Below are positions 825-18,777 of a stretch of DNA of 48,021 nt, in pieces. The DNA lies in sequence record PQ900155.1; one strand, written 5' to 3'. Under the pieces are notes generated by a model. The model was not told the origin of the DNA. It was given only the letters and a program-made list of their open reading frames with translations, and did no database searches. The first letter of the stretch is position 1. The number at the start of each line of letters is the position of its first letter. The position numbers and the translations under genes are program-made. Source of the stretch: Escherichia phage vB_Eco_CWW26.

Positions 825-2262
825 TTCCCCAAAAGAATTAAAATTACTGCGCCTCGCACTTGAGGAAGATTTTACTTTATTTGCTCGTTTCTTCTTTAAA
901 GTTTTAAAAGGGACTAAATTTGTATTTAGTGACCACCATCATGTAATTTGTGATGCGTTGATGGATGTATTTTACGGTCGCACCACTCATTTAATAATTA
1001 ACATGCCGCCCCGTTATTCGAAAACCGAACTGGCTGTTAAATTATTTTCCGCATGGTGCTACGTTAAGAATCCCAAGTGTGAATTTATTCACCTGTCGTA
1101 TGCTGATATTCTCGCGCTGGATAACTCCGAATCAATCAAATCAGTTTTGAAGTCTGAAGAGTTTCAAAAACTGTGGCCTCATGTGACCATCAAGGCGAAT
1201 AAGGATTCGAAGAAGGCGTGGGGCACTGACCAGGGTGGTGTATTCTATGCGACGGCTGCGGGTGGCCCTATCACTGGTTTTGGTGCTGGCAAACTGGACG
1301 ACTTCGAGAACGGTAATGGGTTTGGTGGTGCAATCATCATCGATGACCCGTTAAAACCAGATGACGCGTATTCTGACCCAAAACGTAACGGTGTTAACCG
1401 TCGCTGGGATGAAACCATCAAATCACGTTTTAACTCCACAAAGACGCCCTGCATTGTCATCATGCAGCGACTTCACGAGGAGGACTTTTGCGGCACCCTG
1501 TTGAAAGACGAGGAGTATAATTTCCGTCATCTGGTGCTTCCTGCCATTGTGGACGAGGGTTTACCGACGGAGCGTGCGTTGTGGCCCCAGAAACACTCTC
1601 TGGAAGCCCTCAAAGCGATGCAGAAGAAAAACTCGTACATGTTCTCCGGTCAGATGCAGCAACGTCCCTCACCGCTCGGGGGCGGCATTCTGAAGGGGTC
1701 ATGGTTCGGACGTTACACCGTTGTGCCAAAGCTGAAATACAGAGCGGTGTTTATCGATACGGCGCAGAAAGCCAAAGAGCATAACGACTATCAGGTCGCC
1801 GAACTGTGGGGACTGGGTGAGGATGGGTATCTGTATCTCCTCGACGTCATGCGTGACAAGTTCGAAGCGTATGAGCTTGAGGTAAAAATTCCCGACTTCT
1901 GGAACAAGCACCGCAATGACAAAAACGGTCGTTTGCGTTACATGGCTGTCGAAGATAAATCATCCGGCACAGAACTTATCCAGAAGATTCGCCGCAAAAT
2001 TAAACCCGTGATACCCGTGCGGGAGATACCACGTGGACCGGCGGCAAATAAATTAACCCGCGTGATGGATGTACAGGGTTACATTGAGTCAGGATATGTT
2101 AAGATACCCGAAGATGCCCCATGGGTTCATGACTTCGTTACGGAGTGTGAAGCGTTCACTGCCGATGATACACACGCTCACGATGACCAGATTGACCCAA
2201 TGTGTGATGCAATTAGTCAAATGCTCCACAATGGCAAAGCAACCGTTTCGGAGATTTTATAA
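814..2262 (+). CDS. terL: terminase large subunit
   Basis: 482 aa; Walker A-like PPRYSKTE, Walker B-like AIIIDDP, C-terminal acidic nuclease-like region; sits between terS and portal. Confidence 0.75.
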   Translation: MNFNSPKELKLLRLALEEDFTLFARFFFKVLKGTKFVFSDHHHVICDALMDVFYGRTTHLIINMPPRYSKTELAVKLFSAWCYVKNPKCEFIHLSYADILALDNSESIKSVLKSEEFQKLWPHVTIKANKDSKKAWGTDQGGVFYATAAGGPITGFGAGKLDDFENGNGFGGAIIIDDPLKPDDAYSDPKRNGVNRRWDETIKSRFNSTKTPCIVIMQRLHEEDFCGTLLKDEEYNFRHLVLPAIVDEGLPTERALWPQKHSLEALKAMQKKNSYMFSGQMQQRPSPLGGGILKGSWFGRYTVVPKLKYRAVFIDTAQKAKEHNDYQVAELWGLGEDGYLYLLDVMRDKFEAYELEVKIPDFWNKHRNDKNGRLRYMAVEDKSSGTELIQKIRRKIKPVIPVREIPRGPAANKLTRVMDVQGYIESGYVKIPEDAPWVHDFVTECEAFTADDTHAHDDQIDPMCDAISQMLHNGKATVSEIL

Positions 2263-2264
2263 AC

Positions 2265-3674
2265 ATGGCTAAGGCTGCTAAAACAAACCTTCATCTCATG
2301 CCAGCTACAACAACCGACGGGCTGGTAAACGTCGTATCTGGTCTCGGAACGTGGAAAGCAAAACGCTCTCACAACGCGTTCCAGTATGCCGCGCTGTCCA
2401 ACTGGCAACAACTTGACGCAGCTTACCAGACTAACTGGCTGGCTCGTCAGATTGTGGAAATACCTGCCGAAGACATGTGTCGTGAGTGGCGCACTATCAA
2501 GTGCAAGGAAGCTGATGACATCCGTATCGAGGAGGACCGACTGATGATACCTGCCGTTGTACAGGAGGCTGTCACATGGGCGCGTCTGTACGGTGGTGGT
2601 GGTATTCTCATGCTGACCGGTCAGGACCTGTCAAAGCCGCTCGACGTGCGCCGTATTCGTAAAGGTGATTTGAAGCGTTGTATCGTGTTTGACCGTCATG
2701 ATATGTCACCTCTCACCATGAACACCTGGGACATTCTGGCACCTAATTACATGATGCCGGAGTATTACACCATTACTGGTGGTGGACAACAAATCCACTG
2801 GACCCATTTTGCGCGTTTCAATGGTAAGCGTTTGCCGCGTCGCCAGATGGTCCAGACTCAGGGATGGGGTGACAGTGAGTTACGCGTGTGCCTCGATGAC
2901 ATCATGGACATGGTTGCGTCGAAGGATGGCATCGCGGAACTGATGCAGGAAGCAAACGTTGATGTGGTCAAGCGTGAAGGGTTGTCCGATGAGTTAGCCA
3001 GTGACCAGGATGACGCGATTGTGTCGCGTTACACTCTGTTCAGTCAGATGAAGTCACTGGTGCAAATGGCCCTGCTGGACGGTGACGAGTCATACGAACG
3101 TAAGACGCTCGACCTGGGCGGCGTTGCACCGGTGCTTGAGACGTTCATGACGTGGATTAGTGGTGCAGCTGACATTCCTGTCACGCGCCTGTTCGGTACT
3201 TCAGCCAAAGGTTTAAACGCCACGGGTGAAGGGGACATGAACAACTATAACAACTCCATCCGTTCTAAACAGTTGACACAAGTTGACCCGGGGTTGCGCC
3301 AGCTTGATGAGGTGCTGGTACGTAGCGCACTGGGTTACTGGCCTGACGACTTCAACTATGTGTGGAATCCACTCGCACAGCCCAATGAGTTACAGATTGC
3401 ACAGGCCGCTAAAACACGCGCTGATAAGGACATGTTGTATCTCGCAGAAGGTGTTATCACCGTGTCACAGGTGCAGCGCAATCTGGAAGCCGCCGAAGAG
3501 TATCAGTTTGAAGACGGTCAGATTGATGAGCAGTCAGAGACTGAGAAAGAAATGTCCACTGTGCAACGCCCTGAGCCTGACGAGCAGACCACGGACGCAT
3601 TCTGGATACGTTACAATGGGTATGTGGCTGACGGACTGTCGCACGATGAGATAATGGCAAAACTGGCCCAGTAA
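2265..3674 (+). CDS. portal protein (putative)
   Basis: 469-aa ORF starting 3 bp after terL stop; size and position typical of portal. No motif verified. Confidence 0.55.
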   Translation: MAKAAKTNLHLMPATTTDGLVNVVSGLGTWKAKRSHNAFQYAALSNWQQLDAAYQTNWLARQIVEIPAEDMCREWRTIKCKEADDIRIEEDRLMIPAVVQEAVTWARLYGGGGILMLTGQDLSKPLDVRRIRKGDLKRCIVFDRHDMSPLTMNTWDILAPNYMMPEYYTITGGGQQIHWTHFARFNGKRLPRRQMVQTQGWGDSELRVCLDDIMDMVASKDGIAELMQEANVDVVKREGLSDELASDQDDAIVSRYTLFSQMKSLVQMALLDGDESYERKTLDLGGVAPVLETFMTWISGAADIPVTRLFGTSAKGLNATGEGDMNNYNNSIRSKQLTQVDPGLRQLDEVLVRSALGYWPDDFNYVWNPLAQPNELQIAQAAKTRADKDMLYLAEGVITVSQVQRNLEAAEEYQFEDGQIDEQSETEKEMSTVQRPEPDEQTTDAFWIRYNGYVADGLSHDEIMAKLAQ

Positions 3675-3688
3675 CGGGCCAGTTTGGT

Positions 3689-3811
3689 TTATTTCTGCTT
3701 CGTAAAGCCACCACAACCACACTTCGGACACATCGTGTAACTCACGCCTTTCTTTTCAACCCGGTCAAGATGGTGATGCTCATGCTTGCATGCTACGCAG
3801 ATGATAATCAT
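3689..3811 (-). CDS. small zinc-ribbon-like protein (40 aa)
   Basis: Hand-translated MIIICVACKHEHHHLDRVEKKGVSYTMCPKCGCGGFTKQK; start overlaps stop of upstream gene (TAATG coupling). Below the 60-aa ORF-track cutoff. Confidence 0.3.
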   Translation of the reverse strand: MIIICVACKHEHHHLDRVEKKGVSYTMCPKCGCGGFTKQK

Positions 3812-4419
3812 TAATCCTCCAGCTTCACGCCGGGAATTTTACCGGCTGCGATGGCGTCGTAGATATGTTTAGCAATGTGCTTGATTTGCTCATTATTGTT
3901 GCTAATTAACTGACTAGCTTTTCCTATCTCGGAAATAGTCTCATCACGCTTGCGCTCTGCTTCGGTGCGGAGTGGGCGGAATCCGCAAACATTACCAACA
4001 AAAAATGGCTGACTTCCGTCAGATGGTTTAAGGCATGCACCATCGCCATCATAAACAAGGACAGTTACTGGAAGCCAATCATGGTCGCCGCTTGCTAGCC
4101 ACTCACACTCGACACCAACCGGCGGAAGACCTTCTCCGTTCCATGCTGGCTTTTGAGATTCGGCTAGTGCTGCTTTGTATTGCCAATAGGTCACTATCGA
4201 CTCCTTGTGGTCGTAAGATAAAGGCATGACCCATTCACCACACCAGAAATACATAAGGCTATTCCCTGTGTGATGTTTCCATGATAATCCATCATAGTGG
4301 GGATCATTCGTGTCCCATACACACAGGGAACCGTCATTATCTTGAGTAATTGACAGCGCACCCTCCGGCCAACCGCCACGCTTTGGTAATTCCTGACACA
4401 ATAGTTCAAGTAATGTCAT
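3811..4419 (-). CDS. hypothetical protein (202 aa)
   Basis: ORF track; second gene of a leftward cassette driven by the promoter at 4646-4674; 4-bp overlap with upstream gene. Confidence 0.5.
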   Translation of the reverse strand: MTLLELLCQELPKRGGWPEGALSITQDNDGSLCVWDTNDPHYDGLSWKHHTGNSLMYFWCGEWVMPLSYDHKESIVTYWQYKAALAESQKPAWNGEGLPPVGVECEWLASGDHDWLPVTVLVYDGDGACLKPSDGSQPFFVGNVCGFRPLRTEAERKRDETISEIGKASQLISNNNEQIKHIAKHIYDAIAAGKIPGVKLED

Positions 4420-4610
4420 TTTGTCTCTCCTGTTGCTTTAAGATAGTGTCGTGCTTTGTCAGTGAGTTGAAAGTTGCCCATCCCGAAGCGAGTTGGTTCT
4501 ATGTAACCTTTGTCCAATAAATCTTCCACTGTCTGAGGTATCACCCGCCAGAAACGTGTATTTTTGAAACTTTTAAGCATGCTAATTTCACGCTTCGTTA
4601 AACTGTCCAT
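4416..4610 (-). CDS. hypothetical protein (64 aa)
   Basis: ORF track; GGGAGGAG SD 5 nt upstream of ATG at 4610; first gene after the leftward promoter. Confidence 0.5.
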   Translation of the reverse strand: MDSLTKREISMLKSFKNTRFWRVIPQTVEDLLDKGYIEPTRFGMGNFQLTDKARHYLKATGETK

Positions 4611-4676: not shown

Positions 4677-5462
4677 ATGTCACGACAAACAGAGCTAAAT
4701 TATTATCGCCAGCTGAAACAGGTTGCACAGCTTGTTCGTGAGGATGTGGACGCCAACATCGTCCCGCTGGTGAAACAGCTTGCGCCGGAGTACACGGCTG
4801 ACGGCTGGAGTGACACTATCACCTCGGCGATTAACCAGTTGCTCACACGGTGGCTTGGTGCGTTTGCTCGTCGTCAGGCTGAGACTATTGCGTCACAGTT
4901 TGTACAGACTGCGGCAAAGGATAACGCCCGCTCATTCGCTATCAATCTGTACGGCGGCGATACACAGCTACAGGAATATCTCAGCGCCGCATCGTATCAG
5001 AACGCTAAACTCATTCAGTCCATTCCGGCTCAGTATCTGGAGCAGGTGCAGAACATCGTCATGACCAACATGCGTAACGGTATGCGCCCCAGTTACATCG
5101 AGGAAGCACTTGTTAAACAATTTGGTATCACGGAGCGTCGTGCCAAACTTATCGCCCGGGACCAGACCAGTAAAATACAGGGCGATATGAACCGCATTCG
5201 CCAGACGAACAGCGGTATTGAGTATTTCAAATGGGTGACGTCACAGGATGAGCGGGTACGTCATAGCCACGTGGAGGTCGCCAAACGCGATGTGGGATTC
5301 GGTGAAGGTGTATTCCGCTGGGATGATTTGCCGGTTGTCGATGGTGTACCAACATTTCCGGGTCAGCCAATAAATTGCCGTTGTGTGGCGAGGCCAGTCA
5401 CAGCGGCACAGGTGGAGCGGAATAAAAGGGCCGGTAAAACCGACCCAAGTGTTAAGCGATGA
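4677..5462 (+). CDS. head morphogenesis protein (Mu gpF / SPP1 gp7-like)
   Basis: C-terminal motif RVRHSH...DG...P...NCRC typical of this family; ATG at 4677 (ORF track begins at GTG 4632, which would overlap the leftward promoter). Confidence 0.65.
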   Translation: MSRQTELNYYRQLKQVAQLVREDVDANIVPLVKQLAPEYTADGWSDTITSAINQLLTRWLGAFARRQAETIASQFVQTAAKDNARSFAINLYGGDTQLQEYLSAASYQNAKLIQSIPAQYLEQVQNIVMTNMRNGMRPSYIEEALVKQFGITERRAKLIARDQTSKIQGDMNRIRQTNSGIEYFKWVTSQDERVRHSHVEVAKRDVGFGEGVFRWDDLPVVDGVPTFPGQPINCRCVARPVTAAQVERNKRAGKTDPSVKR

Positions 5463-5742
5463 TACCGTCGACCACTTTGTACCATTGCTCTTTAATATTA
5501 TCCAGTCGTGCTATATGTCTGGTAATTTGAGTTTCAAGATGAGCATGTGCACCCAGTAAACTACCAAATAACACCCATTTATCTTTGTGCATGTGAATGT
5601 GGACACCTGCGTTTTTACCAGTTCTGACGAAATCATATGAATTTTTATAGCTTCTATTCACATATCCTACAATGATTTCCGCTTGTGATATCTCATCGAT
5701 ATTTATTGGTAACGCAAATCTTATCTCTATCTCTTGCGTCAT
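5452..5742 (-). CDS. hypothetical protein (96 aa)
   Basis: ORF track; last gene of a leftward cassette; His-rich segment GVHIHMH...GAHAHLE. Confidence 0.4.
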   Translation of the reverse strand: MTQEIEIRFALPINIDEISQAEIIVGYVNRSYKNSYDFVRTGKNAGVHIHMHKDKWVLFGSLLGAHAHLETQITRHIARLDNIKEQWYKVVDGIIA

Positions 5743-5852
5743 TATTTACCCTTCCACGTTTCAATTAAACTTTCAATACCCAGGAACAGTAAGTAGCCAA
5801 ATACCAACGTTCCGAACCAGTGGTCAGCAATGAAGTTGAGTACGTCAATCAT
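5742..5852 (-). CDS. small membrane protein (36 aa, putative)
   Basis: MIDVLNFIADHWFGTLVFGYLLFLGIESLIETWKGK; one hydrophobic helix; ATGA overlap with upstream gene. Confidence 0.3.
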   Translation of the reverse strand: MIDVLNFIADHWFGTLVFGYLLFLGIESLIETWKGK

Positions 5853-6037
5853 TTCCCACGTCCTCTGAACACTCGATTCAACACTTCCCACAGTCCGGAA
5901 ATTACAGCAACCGGACCAAATGCGACAATTGTCCATGCCTGCCACTTATATTCCAGTTCCAGAGGCACCGTGGCGATTGTTACTATAATTACCCACCCTG
6001 CAAGCAGGATAATCAGTACACCTTTGGTAATATCCAT
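5849..6037 (-). CDS. small membrane protein (62 aa, two predicted TM helices)
   Basis: ORF track; two hydrophobic stretches (LIILLAGWVIIVTIATV and IVAFGPVAVISGLW). Confidence 0.45.
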   Translation of the reverse strand: MDITKGVLIILLAGWVIIVTIATVPLELEYKWQAWTIVAFGPVAVISGLWEVLNRVFRGRGK

Positions 6038-6234
6038 TAGCCCAACACCTTATTAACAAGTTGGTCCATCGCGGTCCATCGCTTAGATGCCGAACCATCC
6101 TCTTTAGTCGCGGTGAATGTCACAATATCCTCGAGGAAGTTCATTTTAAAGTTTGTCACAGTGATAACACCGTCTGCATCAATAATCCGGTCATTGTTGC
6201 GGAGCATTACCGCTTTAATTGGTTTATAGTTCAT
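6037..6234 (-). CDS. hypothetical protein (65 aa)
   Basis: ORF track; translationally coupled within the leftward cassette. Confidence 0.4.
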   Translation of the reverse strand: MNYKPIKAVMLRNNDRIIDADGVITVTNFKMNFLEDIVTFTATKEDGSASKRWTAMDQLVNKVLG

Positions 6235-6380
6235 TTTCCATACGCCTCACGTAATGCAGCATTAGCGAGCGCCCAATCATCATGCTTGCGCGCAAGCTGC
6301 TGTGCGGTCTGTAACAGTTCTTTATCAATGACCCGCGCCTCTGATACGGGGCGGTCGTAGCCAGGAAGTAATGTGTTCAT
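6231..6380 (-). CDS. hypothetical protein (49 aa)
   Basis: Hand-translated MNTLLPGYDRPVSEARVIDKELLQTAQQLARKHDDWALANAALREAYGK; GAGAGGG SD; stop overlaps next ATG; about 45 bp downstream of the promoter. Confidence 0.35.
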   Translation of the reverse strand: MNTLLPGYDRPVSEARVIDKELLQTAQQLARKHDDWALANAALREAYGK

Positions 6381-6411
6381 CTCTCAAACCCTCTCTGTTG
6401 TTGATGAATTA

Positions 6412-6441
6412 AGTATACGTCATCCCTGACGAACTCGTCAA
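6412..6441 (-). promoter_or_regulatory. sigma70-like promoter, palindromic -35 (leftward)
   Basis: Minus strand TTGACG-N18-TATACT; palindrome CTGACGAACTCGTCAA at 6426-6441. Confidence 0.5.
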
Positions 6442-6447
6442 CTTAAA

Positions 6448-6633
6448 TCACTCCTGCGGCGGCTCGGGTAATGGTTGCCAGTGTGTGGGAGTAAATAAAG
6501 CGCCATAAACTCGCCAGTTACCGCTTAATCCTTCGCTATAGAAACCAGTCTTCATTCCGCAATACTTCTTTGTCACCAGTACATCAACGCCTTCTTCTGG
6601 TAATTTATCACTACACTTAATCCAGTCTGCCAT
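6448..6633 (-). CDS. DUF551-like phage protein
   Basis: C-terminal THWQPLPEPP matches the DUF551 signature as I recall it; upstream KCSDKLPEEG. Confidence 0.5.
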   Translation of the reverse strand: MADWIKCSDKLPEEGVDVLVTKKYCGMKTGFYSEGLSGNWRVYGALFTPTHWQPLPEPPQE

Positions 6634-6814
6634 ACAATGTCCCCACTCGTTTCAAATCGCGCTGTGCGTGACAGCTGTAATTACCATCGTCCCATTTGAC
6701 CCAGTATTGCGGCGGGTCATTTGCGACAACATTTTTAACTGTGCCGGTAACGACACCATCGGGGAATAACTTCACAAGTGTCCCGGTTGGGTAGCGTGGG
6801 ATGGTGCTGGTCAT
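6617..6814 (-). CDS. hypothetical protein (65 aa)
   Basis: ORF track; overlaps neighbours within the leftward cassette. Confidence 0.4.
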   Translation of the reverse strand: MTSTIPRYPTGTLVKLFPDGVVTGTVKNVVANDPPQYWVKWDDGNYSCHAQRDLKRVGTLYGRLD

Positions 6815-7104
6815 TCCAGTTCCTCATCTTTTTGATTAATGTACACTGGTTCACCAAACCATACGGGTGTGACATATCCCTTGATTTCATCAGCAATGCG
6901 ACTGGCGCACGATAGCGCCCCTGATTGTGAATGTATGCGACCGTTGGCATATTCAGTTTGATAGGCGTGAGGCTGCTCACCCTCATACAACGGTTTCAGT
7001 TTATACCCAAACATGACAGCGTTGTTATGCGCCACACTGCCCGCGCGGACCAGATATGTCGTACCGCGATTGGTTGTCACTTCATATGCGTATGGTGTGT
7101 TCAT
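6811..7104 (-). CDS. hypothetical protein (97 aa)
   Basis: ORF track; 4-bp overlap with upstream gene. Confidence 0.4.
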   Translation of the reverse strand: MNTPYAYEVTTNRGTTYLVRAGSVAHNNAVMFGYKLKPLYEGEQPHAYQTEYANGRIHSQSGALSCASRIADEIKGYVTPVWFGEPVYINQKDEELE

Positions 7105-7658
7105 TTGTCACCCTCCGACAGTTCATTAATTAGACGCTCAAGATACCAGCGGGCCTTTTTCACATCTTCCAGGCCGTTCTTCTCTTCATAGCGCCACAGG
7201 TATTTAACAACGTTTGCCACACATACTGCCTCGATACCGGTCTTACCCACCGTGGCAGCGGTGATAGCGTCGATACACTCGATACCGCCTTGTGTGTAGT
7301 GTGACGGGTGGTTGACCATGTCGACATCAATGAGTGGAGTTTGAATGCAACCGAATTGTACAGTACCATCTGGGTGATGAATTGAACGCGGACGATTATC
7401 ATTGGTTGCTACAGGTTCGCGTTGGGCGATGATTTCTATGTTATAGGTAGCGTTAACGTCTCCTTCACCAAGCGTATTACAATCATCAAGACTTGACTCA
7501 CTGGGCCACCAAATTCTGTCCCCCACACTTTGCAAACCGTTACGGTTTTCCTCATATCCGATGTCGCCAGTTCCCAACTCTCTTATCACCTGCTTACACC
7601 AATCCGGCGCACATTCGAAGTCTTTCTCGTCACCTTTAATGTAGTTCCACGTGGTCAT
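7101..7658 (-). CDS. DUF3310-domain protein
   Basis: HPSHYTQGGIECIDAI...VVKYLWRYEEKNGLEDVKKARWYLERL resembles DUF3310; ATG at 7658 with GAGGAGA SD. The ORF-track N-terminus (to 7757) would overlap the promoter. Confidence 0.5.
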   Translation of the reverse strand: MTTWNYIKGDEKDFECAPDWCKQVIRELGTGDIGYEENRNGLQSVGDRIWWPSESSLDDCNTLGEGDVNATYNIEIIAQREPVATNDNRPRSIHHPDGTVQFGCIQTPLIDVDMVNHPSHYTQGGIECIDAITAATVGKTGIEAVCVANVVKYLWRYEEKNGLEDVKKARWYLERLINELSEGDK

Positions 7659-10388: not shown

Positions 10389-10416
10389 AAGCCCTCTTCG
10401 GAGGGCTTTTCTTTTG
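10389..10416 (+). terminator. rho-independent terminator after capsid gene
   Basis: GCCCTC-TTCG-GAGGGC followed by TTTTCTTTT. Confidence 0.7.
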
Positions 10417-10462
10417 CCTCCTCTTTGGTTATAGTTAACACCATCTCAAGAGGAGCAATTCC

Positions 10463-12043
10463 ATGTTTATAGAAAAAGCAAAAGAAATACATAAAGGAAA
10501 ATATGACTATTCCAAAGTGGAATATGTAAACAACAAAACACCTGTGACGATAGTTTGCCCGGTGCATGGCGATTTCGTTCAACTACCACAGGGACACCTG
10601 AAATGCGAAATAGCGTGCCCAAAATGCAGAATCGACGACGTTTATGACCGAATGATACAACAGGCGCGAGCGATTCATGGTGACAAGTACTCATACGTCC
10701 GGGAATCGTTCATTTCCGTAGTCAAGAAAATGTCCATAGTGTGTCCGGTACACGGGGTGTATTACATGACACTGAATAACCACGTTCACGGGGGTGCGGA
10801 GTGTAAACCCTGCGCACTGGCAAAGCGTGGTGAGTTACACCGAAAGACACTTGATAGTTTTGTAGAAGACGCGAAAAAAGTTCATGGTGACAGGTACGAT
10901 TATTCCAAAGTTGTTTACGAGGGTAACAAAAAGAAAATAACCATCACTTGTGCAAAACATGGTGACTTTAAACAGGAACCATCTTCACATCTTTCAGGAA
11001 GAGGTTGTCCAAAATGCGGCCTTGAGTCAAGAGTAAGCAAAAGCATGAGTACTCTTGAAAGATTCATTCGCAAAAGCAGAGTCATACATGGTGATAAATA
11101 CGATTATTCCAAAGCGGTGTATAAAGGTAGTGACCAAAAATTAACCATAATTTGTCCGGTACATGGTGAATTTTCCCAATACGCAAACAACCACTCTACT
11201 CTTGGCCATCAATGCCCGACGTGTTCTAAAGCTGGTGTGTCCCGGGGTGAATTTGAAGTCTTCAACTTCGTCCGTTCCATCTGTCCCGATGCGGTACAAT
11301 CTGACCGTACAGTCATTGGACCGCTGGAACTTGATGTTGTAGTGCCGTCGCGCAATCTGGCAATTGAATTTAACGGCCTGTACTGGCACGATGAACGCAC
11401 GAAAAACAAGAAGTATCACATCACCAAGCGTCACCGCGTGGAAGCCGCAGGATACCGTCTGATAAGTATCCGTGAGGATGTCTGGAATGAGCGCCGCGAA
11501 CAGGTGGAAAGTATCATTCGCAACGCACTCGGCGTGACATCCGACAAAGTGTTTGCCCGCAAATGTAATATCGTGGAAGTTTCGACGTCTGAAGCGAAGG
11601 TATTTATGGAGAAACACCACGTGCAGGGTTTCCGGGGTGCGACCGTACATTATGGTCTGCAACACGATGATACATTAGTCGCCGTAATCAGTCTGACAAA
11701 CTGGCAGAAAAAGAATGAGTGGGAACTGGTACGATATGCAACCGCGTGTAATGTTCCGGGTGGACTGTCCCGCCTGTGGAAACATGCTACCACGGTTAAC
11801 AACATTGTCCGTGCCTATTCATACGTTGACCGGGATTTGTTCAGTGGTTCCGGTTATATTAATGCCGGTTTCACACTTTCAACCACGACAGTGGGGTTCA
11901 GGATTGTAAATGGTTGCACAACCGAATCGCGTGAGAAGTGGAACCGCGCACCAGATGAAATGACACAGACGCAATGGTACGAATCAGAAGGTGTATCACG
12001 CATCTACGATTCTGGACAGGACAAGCTGTTATGGGTAGAATGA
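10463..12043 (+). CDS. free-standing homing-endonuclease-like protein (4 zinc-ribbon repeats + Vsr/PD-(D/E)xK-like C-terminal domain)
   Basis: Four repeats of HGDKYDYSKV...CP.HG.F...H..G..CPKC; C-terminal LDVVVPSRNLAIEFNGLYWHDE; AT-rich codon usage; AAGAGGAG SD; inserted between capsid terminator and next structural gene. Confidence 0.55.
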   Translation: MFIEKAKEIHKGKYDYSKVEYVNNKTPVTIVCPVHGDFVQLPQGHLKCEIACPKCRIDDVYDRMIQQARAIHGDKYSYVRESFISVVKKMSIVCPVHGVYYMTLNNHVHGGAECKPCALAKRGELHRKTLDSFVEDAKKVHGDRYDYSKVVYEGNKKKITITCAKHGDFKQEPSSHLSGRGCPKCGLESRVSKSMSTLERFIRKSRVIHGDKYDYSKAVYKGSDQKLTIICPVHGEFSQYANNHSTLGHQCPTCSKAGVSRGEFEVFNFVRSICPDAVQSDRTVIGPLELDVVVPSRNLAIEFNGLYWHDERTKNKKYHITKRHRVEAAGYRLISIREDVWNERREQVESIIRNALGVTSDKVFARKCNIVEVSTSEAKVFMEKHHVQGFRGATVHYGLQHDDTLVAVISLTNWQKKNEWELVRYATACNVPGGLSRLWKHATTVNNIVRAYSYVDRDLFSGSGYINAGFTLSTTTVGFRIVNGCTTESREKWNRAPDEMTQTQWYESEGVSRIYDSGQDKLLWVE

Positions 12044-12075: not shown

Positions 12076-12393
12076 ATGGTTACTGTAAAAAATATTTCCG
12101 CTCGTCCGTTCATGATGCCGGGCGAAGAAGACGTGATGGAACGTATGCTGGCACCGGGTGATTCGAAAGAATTCGAAGTTACTCCGGCAATTTACAGCCT
12201 GGTCAGCGCATATCAGGAAGCAGGTGAACTGGTTGTCATTTCGGGCGAACTGAAGAACCCTGAATCGGACGTCGAGGATGTGACCATCGACAAACTTCGT
12301 GCGGAAGCCGAAGAACTGGGTATCAAAGTTGATACACGCTGGAAGAAGTCACGACTTCAGCAAGAGATTGAGGCAGCAAAAGCCGCCTCTTAA
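12076..12393 (+). CDS. hypothetical structural-module protein with HeH/Rho-N-like C-terminus
   Basis: ORF track; acidic; C-terminal LRAEAEELGIKVDTRWKKSRLQQEIE. Confidence 0.4.
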   Translation: MVTVKNISARPFMMPGEEDVMERMLAPGDSKEFEVTPAIYSLVSAYQEAGELVVISGELKNPESDVEDVTIDKLRAEAEELGIKVDTRWKKSRLQQEIEAAKAAS

Positions 12394-12411: not shown

Positions 12412-12992
12412 ATGGCTTTCCCGTCAAATGTAATTCCACCCTCACAACAGCCCCTGTCTGAACTCCTGGATATCTGGGAGAGACAGGGGTATGTTTTTGA
12501 GGCTTCCACTGTTACCAGCGTTGCTGCGGGTGCATCGAATAAAACTATCTTCGTCGCCGGGTCACGTCCGGTAATCCTCTTTGACCGTCAGTTGTCATAC
12601 GATGGTGTCGGGGTGAACGCCGCAATCTTTCGCGCGCCCACGTACACCGGTGGCACACTTGTTACTGAAATCAACAATGCCAATGACATCATTACACAGA
12701 CCAATACGGCCAATATCTACAGTGGTGCGACGGTGACAGCAGACGGTATCCAGACTCGTTCGGTTCGTTATATTTTCGGCACCACAAGTAACCAGGGCGC
12801 GGGTGACGCATTACGTGCAATCCAAAGTCCACAATTGCTTTTACCCGGCGCAGTGCTTAATCTGGTACTGACGAATCGTGACACCAACGCGGCGCAGAAC
12901 ATCGCATCACATTTGCGCTGGGCCGAACCACCAACAATTCCGGGACTGGTCATTCAGAATGGTCAGTTTGTAAGCTATAACGGGGTCAATCT

Positions 12993-12996
<4 letters not shown>
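12412..12996 (+). CDS. hypothetical head-tail module protein (194 aa)
   Basis: ORF track; rightward operon between capsid and tail genes. Confidence 0.45.
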
Positions 12997-13769
<773 letters not shown>

Positions 13770-13770
<1 letters not shown>

Positions 13771-13790
13771 GCCCCTCACGGGGCTTTGTA
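13770..13790 (+). terminator. hairpin terminator (weak T-tract)
   Basis: AGCCCC-TCAC-GGGGCT then TTGTAAG, between convergent genes. Confidence 0.4.
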
Positions 13791-13865
13791 AGACATGAAT
13801 GCTTTCATGAATTCCGCTGCACCTTTGTCCCATTCGTTACAATGGTTAACCATCCGTATCGTGAG

Positions 13866-14315
13866 TTAACTTCCGGTACTCCCAAAACCACCCTGACGGT
13901 TAGTTTTCTGTTGGGGAGGTTCATTGATTTCATTAAACGTCACTTGTTCGACTGGAATTAGCATCCCCTGTGCGATCCGGTCACCGTGATTAACCCAGAA
14001 CACACCTTCATGATGGTTAACATCCTGCGTCAACTTAACCATTAACTCACCAGTGTAGTCACTGTCAATGACGCCGGTACAATTTGACAGACGGACATCG
14101 CTGTTAAATCCGTGACCACTGCGTGAGTAAATCATCAAAGCATGTCCAACTGGTATATCAAATTTAAGCCCTGTAGGAATGATTACAGGCTCACCGTTGT
14201 GAATTAGCACTGGTTTATCGAGTGCAGCATAAATATCGAAGCACGCGCTTCCTGACGTTGCATACGTTGGGATACGTGCACCAGGACGTGACAGGTAAAC
14301 ATTCATTTCGCTCAT
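13866..14315 (-). CDS. dut: dUTPase (dUTP pyrophosphatase)
   Basis: Motifs PTYATSGSA, YSRSG, GVIDSDYTGEL, GDRIAQ, GGFGSTG. ATG at 14315 with GGAGAG SD gives a typical ~149 aa; the ORF track extends to 14414. Confidence 0.85.
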   Translation of the reverse strand: MSEMNVYLSRPGARIPTYATSGSACFDIYAALDKPVLIHNGEPVIIPTGLKFDIPVGHALMIYSRSGHGFNSDVRLSNCTGVIDSDYTGELMVKLTQDVNHHEGVFWVNHGDRIAQGMLIPVEQVTFNEINEPPQQKTNRQGGFGSTGS

Positions 14316-14394
14316 TTCTTCAACTCTCCAGCCATATTGTGCGCGGTTAAGCGCGATAAATTTATCTTTCGTTGTAAATAAAACTGTTCCGGAC

Positions 14395-14793
14395 TTATGC
14401 ATTACTACCCACATATTTAATCACCATGTATCCTGGTCTGGCGGAAAGTGAGACCTTGTGTCCATATATCCACGCGGTTTTATATACGTATGTCAACTGT
14501 GCGGTGCGCAATTTAATGTCAGAATATGTAGCTTTCGTTCTCCATTCCCATGTAAATTTATCGCCTGGTTTTGCTCTTTCAAGGGCGTCAAGAAGGATGA
14601 TGCGCTCATACGACCTTACTCCACGTGATACGCGTCTCCGGGTTTTGGGCTTCCCTCGTGCCAGACTTCGACCATCTGGTTTTCCACTTTTTGTGATTCG
14701 TATCAGTCTCTGTGATGGCTGTGCGACATCTCGAGGGACACTCTCTTCTGGAACAGAATTTATTTTTTTTAAAATATAAGATGCAAATGACAC
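14395..14793 (-). CDS. hypothetical basic protein
   Basis: GTG at 14793 with AGGAG SD; the ORF-track start at 14856 lies inside the promoter and repeat, so a shorter product is preferred. Confidence 0.4.
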   Translation of the reverse strand: MSFASYILKKINSVPEESVPRDVAQPSQRLIRITKSGKPDGRSLARGKPKTRRRVSRGVRSYERIILLDALERAKPGDKFTWEWRTKATYSDIKLRTAQLTYVYKTAWIYGHKVSLSARPGYMVIKYVGSNA

Positions 14794-14824
14794 TGTGTTA
14801 CTCCTCTCTGTAATTTGTAAAACG

Positions 14825-14853
14825 AGTATATCAATGATTGACGTACTCGTCAA
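14825..14853 (-). promoter_or_regulatory. sigma70-like promoter, palindromic -35 (leftward)
   Basis: Minus strand TTGACG-agtacgtcaatcattga-TATACT (17-bp spacer); palindrome TTGACGTACTCGTCAA 14838-14853 straddles the repeat boundary. Confidence 0.6.
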
Positions 14854-15143
14854 CACCTCATTTTACCCCGAAATACCCGAGCTATCGGGGTGGTGAATTT
14901 ACATTCACAATCATAGGTTTACGCGCATAACCGAAAACCCCGTACATTCTTCCCTTCTTCCTTCTTATAAACCTTATAAACTATACATTATGTATTATAC
15001 TACATTTATACTATATATTATATACTTTCTATTACTACTAATTACTATTTTATAAGGGTATAAGGGTAATAAGTAGTATAGTACTGAAAGGTAAAGAGTT
15101 TTTGATACCCCGATGAAGTACCCCGAACGACTTTCAACGGGGT
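14844..15143. repeat. 300-bp direct repeat, copy B
   Basis: Matches 1-300 by eye; flanks diverge immediately outside. Confidence 0.9.
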
Positions 15144-15198
15144 GTGTGGATACTGACGCAATGCTGTGTGATAATGTCTTGACAAACGAGGGCACACT

Positions 15199-18196: not shown

Positions 18197-18532
18197 TTAT
18201 TTCTGGTTGAGCATGGCGGTGCGGTAGGATTCATCCTCACCAAATATAGCCGCCTCCAGTACATCAATGGCTTGCGATGGTGAGTGTGAATATTTATCGA
18301 AGGTCGGACCTTTGATGAACTGTGCGATTTTGAACAGTCGTTTTTCTTGCGCGTGATACAAATCACTTAGTTTCTTATATCTCTCATCGGACTCACTATC
18401 CATCGTCGCCAGGAGCATTTTATACACCTGAAGATTGTATTCACCGTTCATCGATAGCTGACCTTGCTCATCTTTTATTTTGTACAGTCGGTCGATTTGT
18501 GTAATCAGGTTTTCTTTTGTCACTCTTCTCAT
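18197..18532 (-). CDS. hypothetical protein (111 aa)
   Basis: ORF track; second gene of a leftward two-gene cassette in the tail module. Confidence 0.45.
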   Translation of the reverse strand: MRRVTKENLITQIDRLYKIKDEQGQLSMNGEYNLQVYKMLLATMDSESDERYKKLSDLYHAQEKRLFKIAQFIKGPTFDKYSHSPSQAIDVLEAAIFGEDESYRTAMLNQK

Positions 18533-18777
18533 TTTCTTTTACTCCGAATGTGAAAGTCTGCTTTATCCATCATATCTTTACGCCAGCAAACGCCGGTACC
18601 CATATACGCCGGGTCGTCACTTTCCGCATAACCAAATTCATTTTCATGATACGTGCAAATCGTGTCGGTCTGTCCGTCATAAATCTGGAACTGATCACCT
18701 TGTGCAGCGTGGGCACCGCTGCAGTAAATTGTCGCAGCCATGATGACTGCTAACTGAATTTTAAATTTGTGAATCAT
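18529..18777 (-). CDS. small secreted protein with signal peptide
   Basis: MIHKFKIQLAVIMAATIYCSGAHA then mature part with 3 Cys; ATG at 18777 with AGGAGA SD. The ORF-track TTG at 18837 is the promoter -35. Confidence 0.5.
   Translation of the reverse strand: MIHKFKIQLAVIMAATIYCSGAHAAQGDQFQIYDGQTDTICTYHENEFGYAESDDPAYMGTGVCWRKDMMDKADFHIRSKRK

Follow-up and report, generated by a model that had tools for sequence, protein, structure and literature searches.

According to what Sandegren et al. reportedly found in 2005, the phage endonuclease Hef cleaves near its own locus and cuts DNA with or without the gene. Hef-type phage endonucleases belong to the Vsr-like 'EDxHD' family, whose type member is I-Bth0305I (Taylor et al. 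2011, PMC3239194). Arrays of CapR/DUF723/DUF4379 units have been described in phage T5orf172 homing endonuclease genes, with DNA binding anticipated and with the suggestion that these modular zinc-finger arrays could readily be exchanged (Barth et al. 2023, PMC10448857), and fusions of Mom to a restriction endonuclease (Mom-REase fusions) in jumbo phages have been interpreted as a restriction-modification-like system (Iyer et al. 2021, PMC7824862). Published work thus covers both features: the fusion of Mom to a nuclease, and modular arrays of zinc fingers in genes for phage homing endonucleases. Here, we analyse gp23, a gene of Escherichia phage vB_Eco_CWW26 (PQ900155.1) that encodes a zinc-ribbon array, a Vsr-like nuclease and a Mom-like GNAT domain in one protein. 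The window, that is, the whole stretch of 48,021 bp that was analysed, has 100% identity to the full genome sequence of Escherichia phage ZCEC13 (ON086804 / NC_071140, genus Jedunavirus).

We assign gp23, with a probability of about 0.78, to the Hef-like branch of Vsr-like (EDxHD) enzymes, as a free-standing homing endonuclease. An initial annotation, made from the letters of the window, had proposed a 526-aa open reading frame at 10463-12043, and this is confirmed: it lies on the plus strand, has an ATG start and is annotated as gp23. As the record and its relatives already annotate the gene, the gene call adds nothing; its label is 'endonuclease-like protein' in NC_071140, and its counterparts in relatives are labelled 'putative Hef-like homing endonuclease' or 'homing endonuclease'. 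The gene therefore counts as known, and it is a member of a very large known family. Its Hef-like assignment (10463..12043, plus strand) is carried by phrog_559, which matches aa 64-524 with an E value of 8e-126, by phrog_3339 ('homing endonuclease'), which matches aa 205-519 (E 1e-71), and by the PADLOC model HEase. A search of gp23 against NCBIfam gave nothing significant (Vsr at E 0.061, plus a spurious dTMP-kinase match).

The catalytic part is a Vsr-like PD-(D/E)xK nuclease domain located in the centre of the protein (11240..11533, plus strand; aa ~260-357), in which E263, D291, E302, N304, H309, H319 and K322 are conserved in the family. The initial annotation had proposed a Vsr/PD-(D/E)xK nuclease at the C terminus. 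The nuclease stands, and the motif then quoted falls inside this domain; its C-terminal placement does not, since the C-terminal region is a GNAT domain that had been overlooked. The suggested profile check for a nuclease fold returned a Vsr-like/EDxHD match, and the Vsr-like restriction-endonuclease fold is supported both by sequence and by fold comparison. The catalytic domain of I-Bth0305I (PDB 3R3P) matched with an E value of 0.0035 when the single sequence was used and of 7.8e-6 with the family profile. In this alignment E170 of I-Bth0305I corresponds to E263 (kept in 56/62 homologues), D196 to D291 (62/62), N208 to N304 (48/62, with D in 13) and H213 to H309 (62/62). The restriction-endonuclease family MTES_1575 matches 42 of the 62 homologues, and Vsr 3. 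An HNH endonuclease, as phrog_559 is labelled, was considered and rejected: a Pfam search at E 0.1 showed no HNH family, and the domain folds as a Vsr-like PD-(D/E)xK nuclease. The PHROG label 'HNH endonuclease' is a misnomer and unreliable, and annotations spread from it will be wrong for the same reason.

Ahead of the nuclease lies an array of four zinc-ribbon units of the DUF723/DUF4379/CapR type (10463..11248, plus strand; aa 1-58, 59-125, 126-193 and 194-262). Each repeat follows the pattern HG-KYDYS...C-x2-HG...H...C-x2-C, with a pairwise identity of 29-51%, and the Cys/His ligand columns (C/H/H/C/C) of the four units are invariant or nearly so in an alignment of gp23 with 37 homologues. 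Pfam DUF723 matches the array (E 9e-13; 48.4 bits against a curated cutoff of 20.9), DUF4379 ('probable treble-clef zinc finger') and CapR score slightly under their Pfam cutoffs, and phrog_4605 matches in four stretches (E 1.7e-39). The four tandem zinc-ribbon repeats proposed initially are thus borne out by DUF723 and phrog_4605; the proposed unit of ~50 aa is too short, as the period is 58-69 aa, or about 65. The AlphaFold2 (AF2) model of gp23 has a predicted local distance difference test score (pLDDT) of 91.5 and a predicted template modelling score (pTM) of 0.51, which suggests that the zinc-ribbon units fold independently on flexible linkers. By analogy with the arrays of Barth et al. 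(PMC10448857), the array is presumed to be a sequence-specific DNA-binding module. The G+C content (GC) of gp23 was said to be low compared with that of its neighbours, and overall it is (45.9% against 49-55%, with 48.9% for the genome), but most of the shortfall comes from the zinc-ribbon array (41.9% GC, and 39.8% GC at third codon positions, GC3), while the remainder of the gene is at 48-52%.

If gp23 is a mobile element, one would expect related phages to differ by its presence at a fixed place. Among the phage records matching the flanks, 34 of 72 carry gp23 DNA (36 matches, 2 of them short and spurious), and in the remaining flank-matching records the capsid gene and gp24 are ~100 nt apart. 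The initial annotation had asked whether relatives lack the open reading frame at this junction; many do, and gp23 is not a conserved structural component. A structural or decoration protein was likewise rejected as a candidate, the gene being missing in about half of the relatives. An alignment of the junction in 12 genomes, with 7 occupied and 5 empty alleles, together with coverage gaps, delimits a mobile cassette of ~1620 bp (10415..12034, plus strand), consisting of a 5' leader and the endonuclease gene. Its left edge is the capsid terminator (10389..10414, plus strand), a stem-loop (10389-10408; AAGCCCTC-TTCG-GAGGGCTT) followed by a T run, which is annotated as rho-independent in KpV52 and KpV79 and is identical in 12/12 genomes up to ...GGGCTTTTCTTT. 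The placement of the gene just past this terminator had been noted initially and is correct: the hairpin and T run lie upstream, and gp24 starts 32 nt past the end of gp23.

The cassette borders are the same in all 12 genomes, with ...GGGCTTTTCTTT on the left and GTA(G/A)AAT... on the right. Empty alleles have, in place of the cassette, a 14-nt filler that exists in two versions (ACCCGTTCAAGGAT or GATTATCGGAAAGG), of which SBP and KB2 share one, and JD001 and KpV79 the other, and the last codons and stop of gp23 overlap sequence common to the empty alleles. Carriers and empty genomes are interleaved: by its flanks, the empty SBP is closest to ZCEC13 (5.2% and 2.8% divergence), and the empty VLCpiM12a and KB2 group by their flanks with the occupied 1611E-K2-1, BUCT_49532 and LAPP1. 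We looked for 'immunity' polymorphisms separating carriers from empty genomes, and no such position was found among the 400 nt compared on the left or the 356 nt compared on the right. The insertion point is therefore the only consistent difference between the two states, as expected if the target spans it. Together with the family matches and the Hef-like annotation in relatives, these shared borders support the homing-endonuclease insertion that had been proposed. One of the carriers, 'Acinetobacter phage LAPP1' (MN923124; recorded host Acinetobacter pittii), is 92.5% identical over this region to ZCEC13 and to the Klebsiella Jedunavirus phages, and has the same four-repeat endonuclease gene as ZCEC13.

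The occupied alleles are not all of one kind. The four-repeat form was found in 9 records only, and a form of 465 aa in ~25. The DNA of the 465-aa form matches ZCEC13 only from window position ~11255 onward (megablast matches start at query position 841), and at least two kinds of it exist, the KpV52-type and the BUCT_47333-type; each starts with GTG, has a 5' leader of its own and carries three zinc-ribbon units. The three arrays have a mutual amino acid identity of 34-38%, which makes them no closer to each other than are the units inside one protein. The remaining 266 aa, corresponding to the nuclease and GNAT core, are >93% identical across array types. Sliding identity places a sharp recombination breakpoint between the allele types at 11250..11260 (plus strand), at the boundary between array and nuclease: per 30-nt block (ungapped), identity to the three-repeat alleles is 13-70% upstream of this point and 83-100% downstream. 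Such a combination of a single Jedunavirus core with three unrelated arrays directly exemplifies the exchange suggested by Barth et al. (2023). The exchange that separates KpV52 (three repeats) from RCIP0030 (four repeats) is recent, because their flanks are only 2.2-3.8% apart and their cores 3.8% apart. With one nuclease and GNAT core, three arrays and one site, the locus provides a clean natural example, which is relevant to the way in which phage homing endonucleases acquire new targets.

Each of the 7 alleles examined is full-length, with no internal stop. The ratio of nonsynonymous to synonymous substitution rates (dN/dS) in these alleles is 0.064 in the array, 0.058 in the nuclease and 0.079 in the GNAT domain, at a synonymous divergence (dS) of ~0.3. 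All three domains are under purifying selection, which speaks for a functional gene. The divergence of the gp23 core between phages is about that of the flanks, with the same groupings. A recent horizontal sweep of gp23 was considered and is not supported, the core being about as diverged as the flanks; the pattern agrees with long residence, or with co-conversion together with the flanks.

The C-terminal third of gp23 is a Mom-like GNAT-fold domain (11543..12040, plus strand; aa 361-526), in which R366, F381, H386, Q388, G389, R424, G433, D456, Y465, G469, F470, D516 and G518 are conserved in the family. By Foldseek, the best PDB match of aa 361-526 is Mom of phage Mu (8BV8, E 3.7e-7), above ordinary acetyltransferases, and the family profile matches Mu Mom with an E value of 6e-5 (hhalign). 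The Pfam Mom model (PF25680) matches 9 of the 62 homologues, at best with an E value of 7.6e-7, and gave no match to aa 360-526 of gp23 even at E 10. In the hhalign alignment, residues critical for Mom activity, the roles of which have been described (PMC13219725, PMC7261163), fall on the positions that are best conserved among Hef-like proteins: R111 of Mom with R424 (62/62 homologues), D149 with D456 (59/62), Y159 with Y465 (61/62) and W48 with F381 (61/62). R111 has been reported as conserved among Mom homologues and not across GNATs generally (PMC13219725, PMC7261163). The essential R151 of Mom aligns with D458 in the ZCEC13 clade; at this position of the sequence alignment, 37 of the 62 homologues have R and 23 have D. 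A counterpart of Mom S124 was not identified in the sequence alignment, to which this comparison is limited: the aligned position is the variable P432, adjoining G433. The glycine loop of GNAT type is kept in the Hef-like family, G433 being present in 61/62 homologues.

We conclude that the GNAT domain is an integral, selected part of the gp23 enzyme. We consider nucleic-acid binding its most probable function, and it may act as a transferase. A further idea, which we regard as doubtful, is that the Hef-like GNAT is an active nucleic-acid transferase, using acyl-CoA or, as Mom does, aminoacyl-tRNA, and that it marks DNA at or near the enzyme's own recognition site. If this were true, these abundant selfish genes, with their ~20,000 clusters (50% identity), would act as 'cut and mark' elements made of a single chain, and the swapped Jedunavirus arrays would represent natural retargeting of one cut-and-mark catalytic core. 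In 2026 Mom was found to use Gly-tRNA for DNA modification, which makes a specific biochemical test possible on this abundant and neglected Hef-like family.

The pairing of nuclease and GNAT is indeed widespread. In a library of 1.84 billion proteins that includes metagenomes, the pair was found in 19,680 cluster representatives (50% identity; E <= 1e-3), and almost all of the 150 top matches listed have it at the C-terminus, with an N-terminal region of variable length ahead of it. Using tblastn, homologues were found at 981 places in 414 phage records, with up to 12 copies per genome in Campylobacter phages. The search reaches the Hef-like genes of Acj9 (E 2e-28), of Escherichia phage N2 and of the Jerseyvirus demigod (53% identity), as well as the LIMEstone-type F-Lim genes and those of Campylobacter CP220/NCTC12673. 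Acj9 and N2 are T4-type phages, and the matches also include Acinetobacter phage genes annotated 'nuclease/acetyltransferase'. The homologue in demigod is inserted between portal and terminase, and that of phiL7 between small tail-module genes and the main tape measure gene. Within Jedunavirus, the Klebsiella phage PCCM_KpPS2 has a different Hef-like gene in its tail module (1922-3370; 482 aa, with 37% identity in nuclease and GNAT), and phage Geezett has two places that match the family. Since one gene occupies another site and one phage has two matching places, the family has entered Jedunavirus more than once. In ZCEC13 itself, a tblastn search of the protein against the window recovered only gp23 and its internal repeats, so that no paralogue was seen, and the annotation of the ZCEC13 record contains no other homing endonuclease gene.

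From these observations, the following course of events can be proposed. In a co-infecting relative whose capsid-gp24 junction is empty, the four zinc-ribbon units would recognise an extended DNA site at this junction or close to it, and the Vsr-like nuclease, by homology to I-Bth0305I and Hef, would cut there. The break would then be repaired from the occupied allele by homologous recombination, and through this repair the empty genome would acquire a copy of the 1.62 kb cassette along with part of its flanks; these last two steps are suggested by the pattern of alleles. Several points weigh against such a homing endonuclease. Cleavage, target site and super-Mendelian inheritance are inferred here, and an interleaved presence or absence at a fixed site would also be expected of any accessory gene exchanged by recombination in the flanks. 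The core is about as diverged as the flanks, so the gene shows no sign of a recent sweep. Three different arrays at one site are awkward if the array alone sets the target, and the classical homing model does not account for a conserved Mom-like domain. Lastly, D222 of I-Bth0305I, the fifth residue of the EDxHD motif, aligns with H319 (60/62 homologues) in both HMMER alignments, a comparison made at the level of sequence only.

The Mom-like domain is what could turn gp23 into something other than a homing element, namely a single-chain restriction-modification-like conflict system, in which the GNAT domain would modify adenines of the phage's own DNA and the nuclease would attack unmodified DNA of the host or of a superinfecting phage. 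This idea has been published for the Mom-REase fusions of jumbo phages (Iyer et al. 2021, PMC7824862), and it draws support from a domain whose closest relative is Mom, in which R424, D456, Y465 and F381 are conserved, the glycine loop is kept (G433, 61/62) and dN/dS is as low as 0.08. We nevertheless consider it unlikely that gp23 works primarily in this way. Long arrays that read sequence suit a rare, specific target better than restriction throughout a genome; the family looks selfish, being present in multiple copies, between conserved genes and variably at fixed sites; and half of the close relatives live without gp23. In addition, the position of the essential R151 of Mom is D458 in the ZCEC13 clade, and the Pfam Mom model does not match gp23.

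The strength of purifying selection, and a divergence equal to that of the flanks, suggest long residence, and might rather point to a moron: an accessory or domesticated nuclease that would be retained for its benefit to the phage, such as the exclusion of related phages or the degradation of host DNA, and that would move only passively, by ordinary recombination in the flanks. Other variable cassettes do lie close by, such as gp25-gp26. Against this explanation, gp23 is homologous to I-Bth0305I, an enzyme for which homing-type cleavage has been shown (PMC3239194), and to Hef, for which Sandegren et al. (2005) reportedly showed it. The cassette also has clean borders that are the same in every genome aligned, and occupied and empty alleles differ consistently at the junction alone; we find this explanation very unlikely. 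It does overlap with a homing endonuclease, because free-standing enzymes of this kind also cause marker exclusion. As for a decaying, inactive remnant of a homing endonuclease gene, a low-GC array and a patchy distribution could suggest a foreign gene in the process of being lost, but the present data contradict this: none of the 7 alleles is truncated or interrupted by a stop, dN/dS stays at 0.06-0.08 across the three domains, and the catalytic residues are invariant. Such a remnant is hardly credible. A free-standing Hef-like homing endonuclease thus remains the explanation that we favor for gp23.

Signals that could govern gp23 expression were found in the leader. An RNA hairpin is predicted at 10414..10458 (plus strand), in which CTCCTCTT (10419-10426) would pair with the Shine-Dalgarno sequence AAGAGGAG (10448-10455). 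Its folding energy is -15.2 kcal/mol (z -2.15), 6 of 200 shuffled sequences are as stable, and both arms are kept in the other four-repeat alleles. According to this folding model, the hairpin might mask the ribosome-binding site in read-through transcripts of the capsid operon, which would then be translated poorly; a regulatory role is thus proposed. T4 homing endonuclease genes use the same device of a hairpin that hides the Shine-Dalgarno sequence. With the cassette placed just past the capsid terminator and a ribosome-binding site that can be hidden, expression of gp23 would be limited and the structural operon left undisturbed. The three-repeat allele of KpV52 has an annotated sigma-70-type promoter in its own, unrelated leader. 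At the other end of the gene, a promoter-like TGGACA-17-TAGAAT faces gp24 (12013..12041, plus strand). It is a consensus match only, with its -35 in the 3' end of gp23 and its -10 in sequence common to the empty alleles, and the promoter scan gives it no statistical support, one promoter-like site being found where 3.5 are expected from shuffles.

The surroundings of gp23 combine conserved and variable genes. On its 5' side are the genes for a head maturation protease (DUF2213), a cement or minor capsid protein and the major capsid protein (PF09950, phrog_264), and on its 3' side lies gp24, which encodes a 105-aa protein of unassigned function (phrog_10035). The gp24 gene (12076-12393) is annotated 'dimeris T4 recombination endonuclease VII'. 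Its protein has no significant Pfam match and matches phrog_10035 only, apart from weak similarity to short Arc-like and endonuclease VII C-terminal profiles; the 'endonuclease VII' annotation of this neighbour is unreliable. Nucleotide divergence among relatives reaches 27% in gp24, compared to 12% in the cement and capsid genes. The next two genes, gp25 and gp26 (12412-13349; 194 aa, phrog_5335, function unassigned, and 118 aa), are missing from KpV52, RCIP0030 and BUCT_47333, in which gp24 is directly followed by the gp27 homologue. The two together make up another cassette of variable presence, ~0.94 kb long and located a few hundred bases 3' of gp23. Gene content beside gp27 also varies, with a dUTPase in ZCEC13 and a methyltransferase or an Srd-like gene in relatives. 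Elsewhere, islands of small minus-strand genes break the plus-strand structural module at 3689-4610, 5452-7658, 13776-15195 and 18197-18777, and several minus-strand open reading frames of 36-65 aa bear implausible labels ('NADH-ubiquinone oxidoreductase chain 3', 'glycosyltransferase').

Compared with described systems, gp23 shares one part or another with each of them. Its catalytic domain is homologous to that of I-Bth0305I (PDB 3R3P; PMC3239194), which differs in being intron-encoded, in having DNA-binding regions of NUMOD or helix-turn-helix (HTH) type and in having no GNAT domain. With Hef of phage U5 and the Hef-like genes it shares a sequence family (phrog_559, phrog_3339), and like the Hef-like genes of T4-like, ViI-like, Campylobacter and other phages it is free-standing and located between conserved genes. 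It differs from other Hef-like genes in its phage genus (Jedunavirus), in its insertion site (the capsid-gp24 junction) and in the number and sequence of its zinc-ribbon units, and it is known from sequence alone. These units are the same kind of repeated modular zinc finger as in the T5orf172 arrays described by Barth et al. (PMC10448857), but in those GIY-YIG-like genes the array is not joined, as it is here, to a Vsr-like nuclease and a GNAT domain. Mu Mom, a tRNA-dependent DNA adenine-modifying GNAT (PF25680; PDB 8BV8), has the same GNAT fold as the C-terminal domain, which in gp23, unlike in Mom, is fused to a nuclease and zinc ribbons. A pairing of a Mom-family GNAT with a restriction-endonuclease fold is found again in the Mom-REase fusions of jumbo phages (Iyer et al. 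2021, PMC7824862); unlike these, gp23 resides in a phage of 48 kb, as a variably present cassette with population genetics of the homing type.

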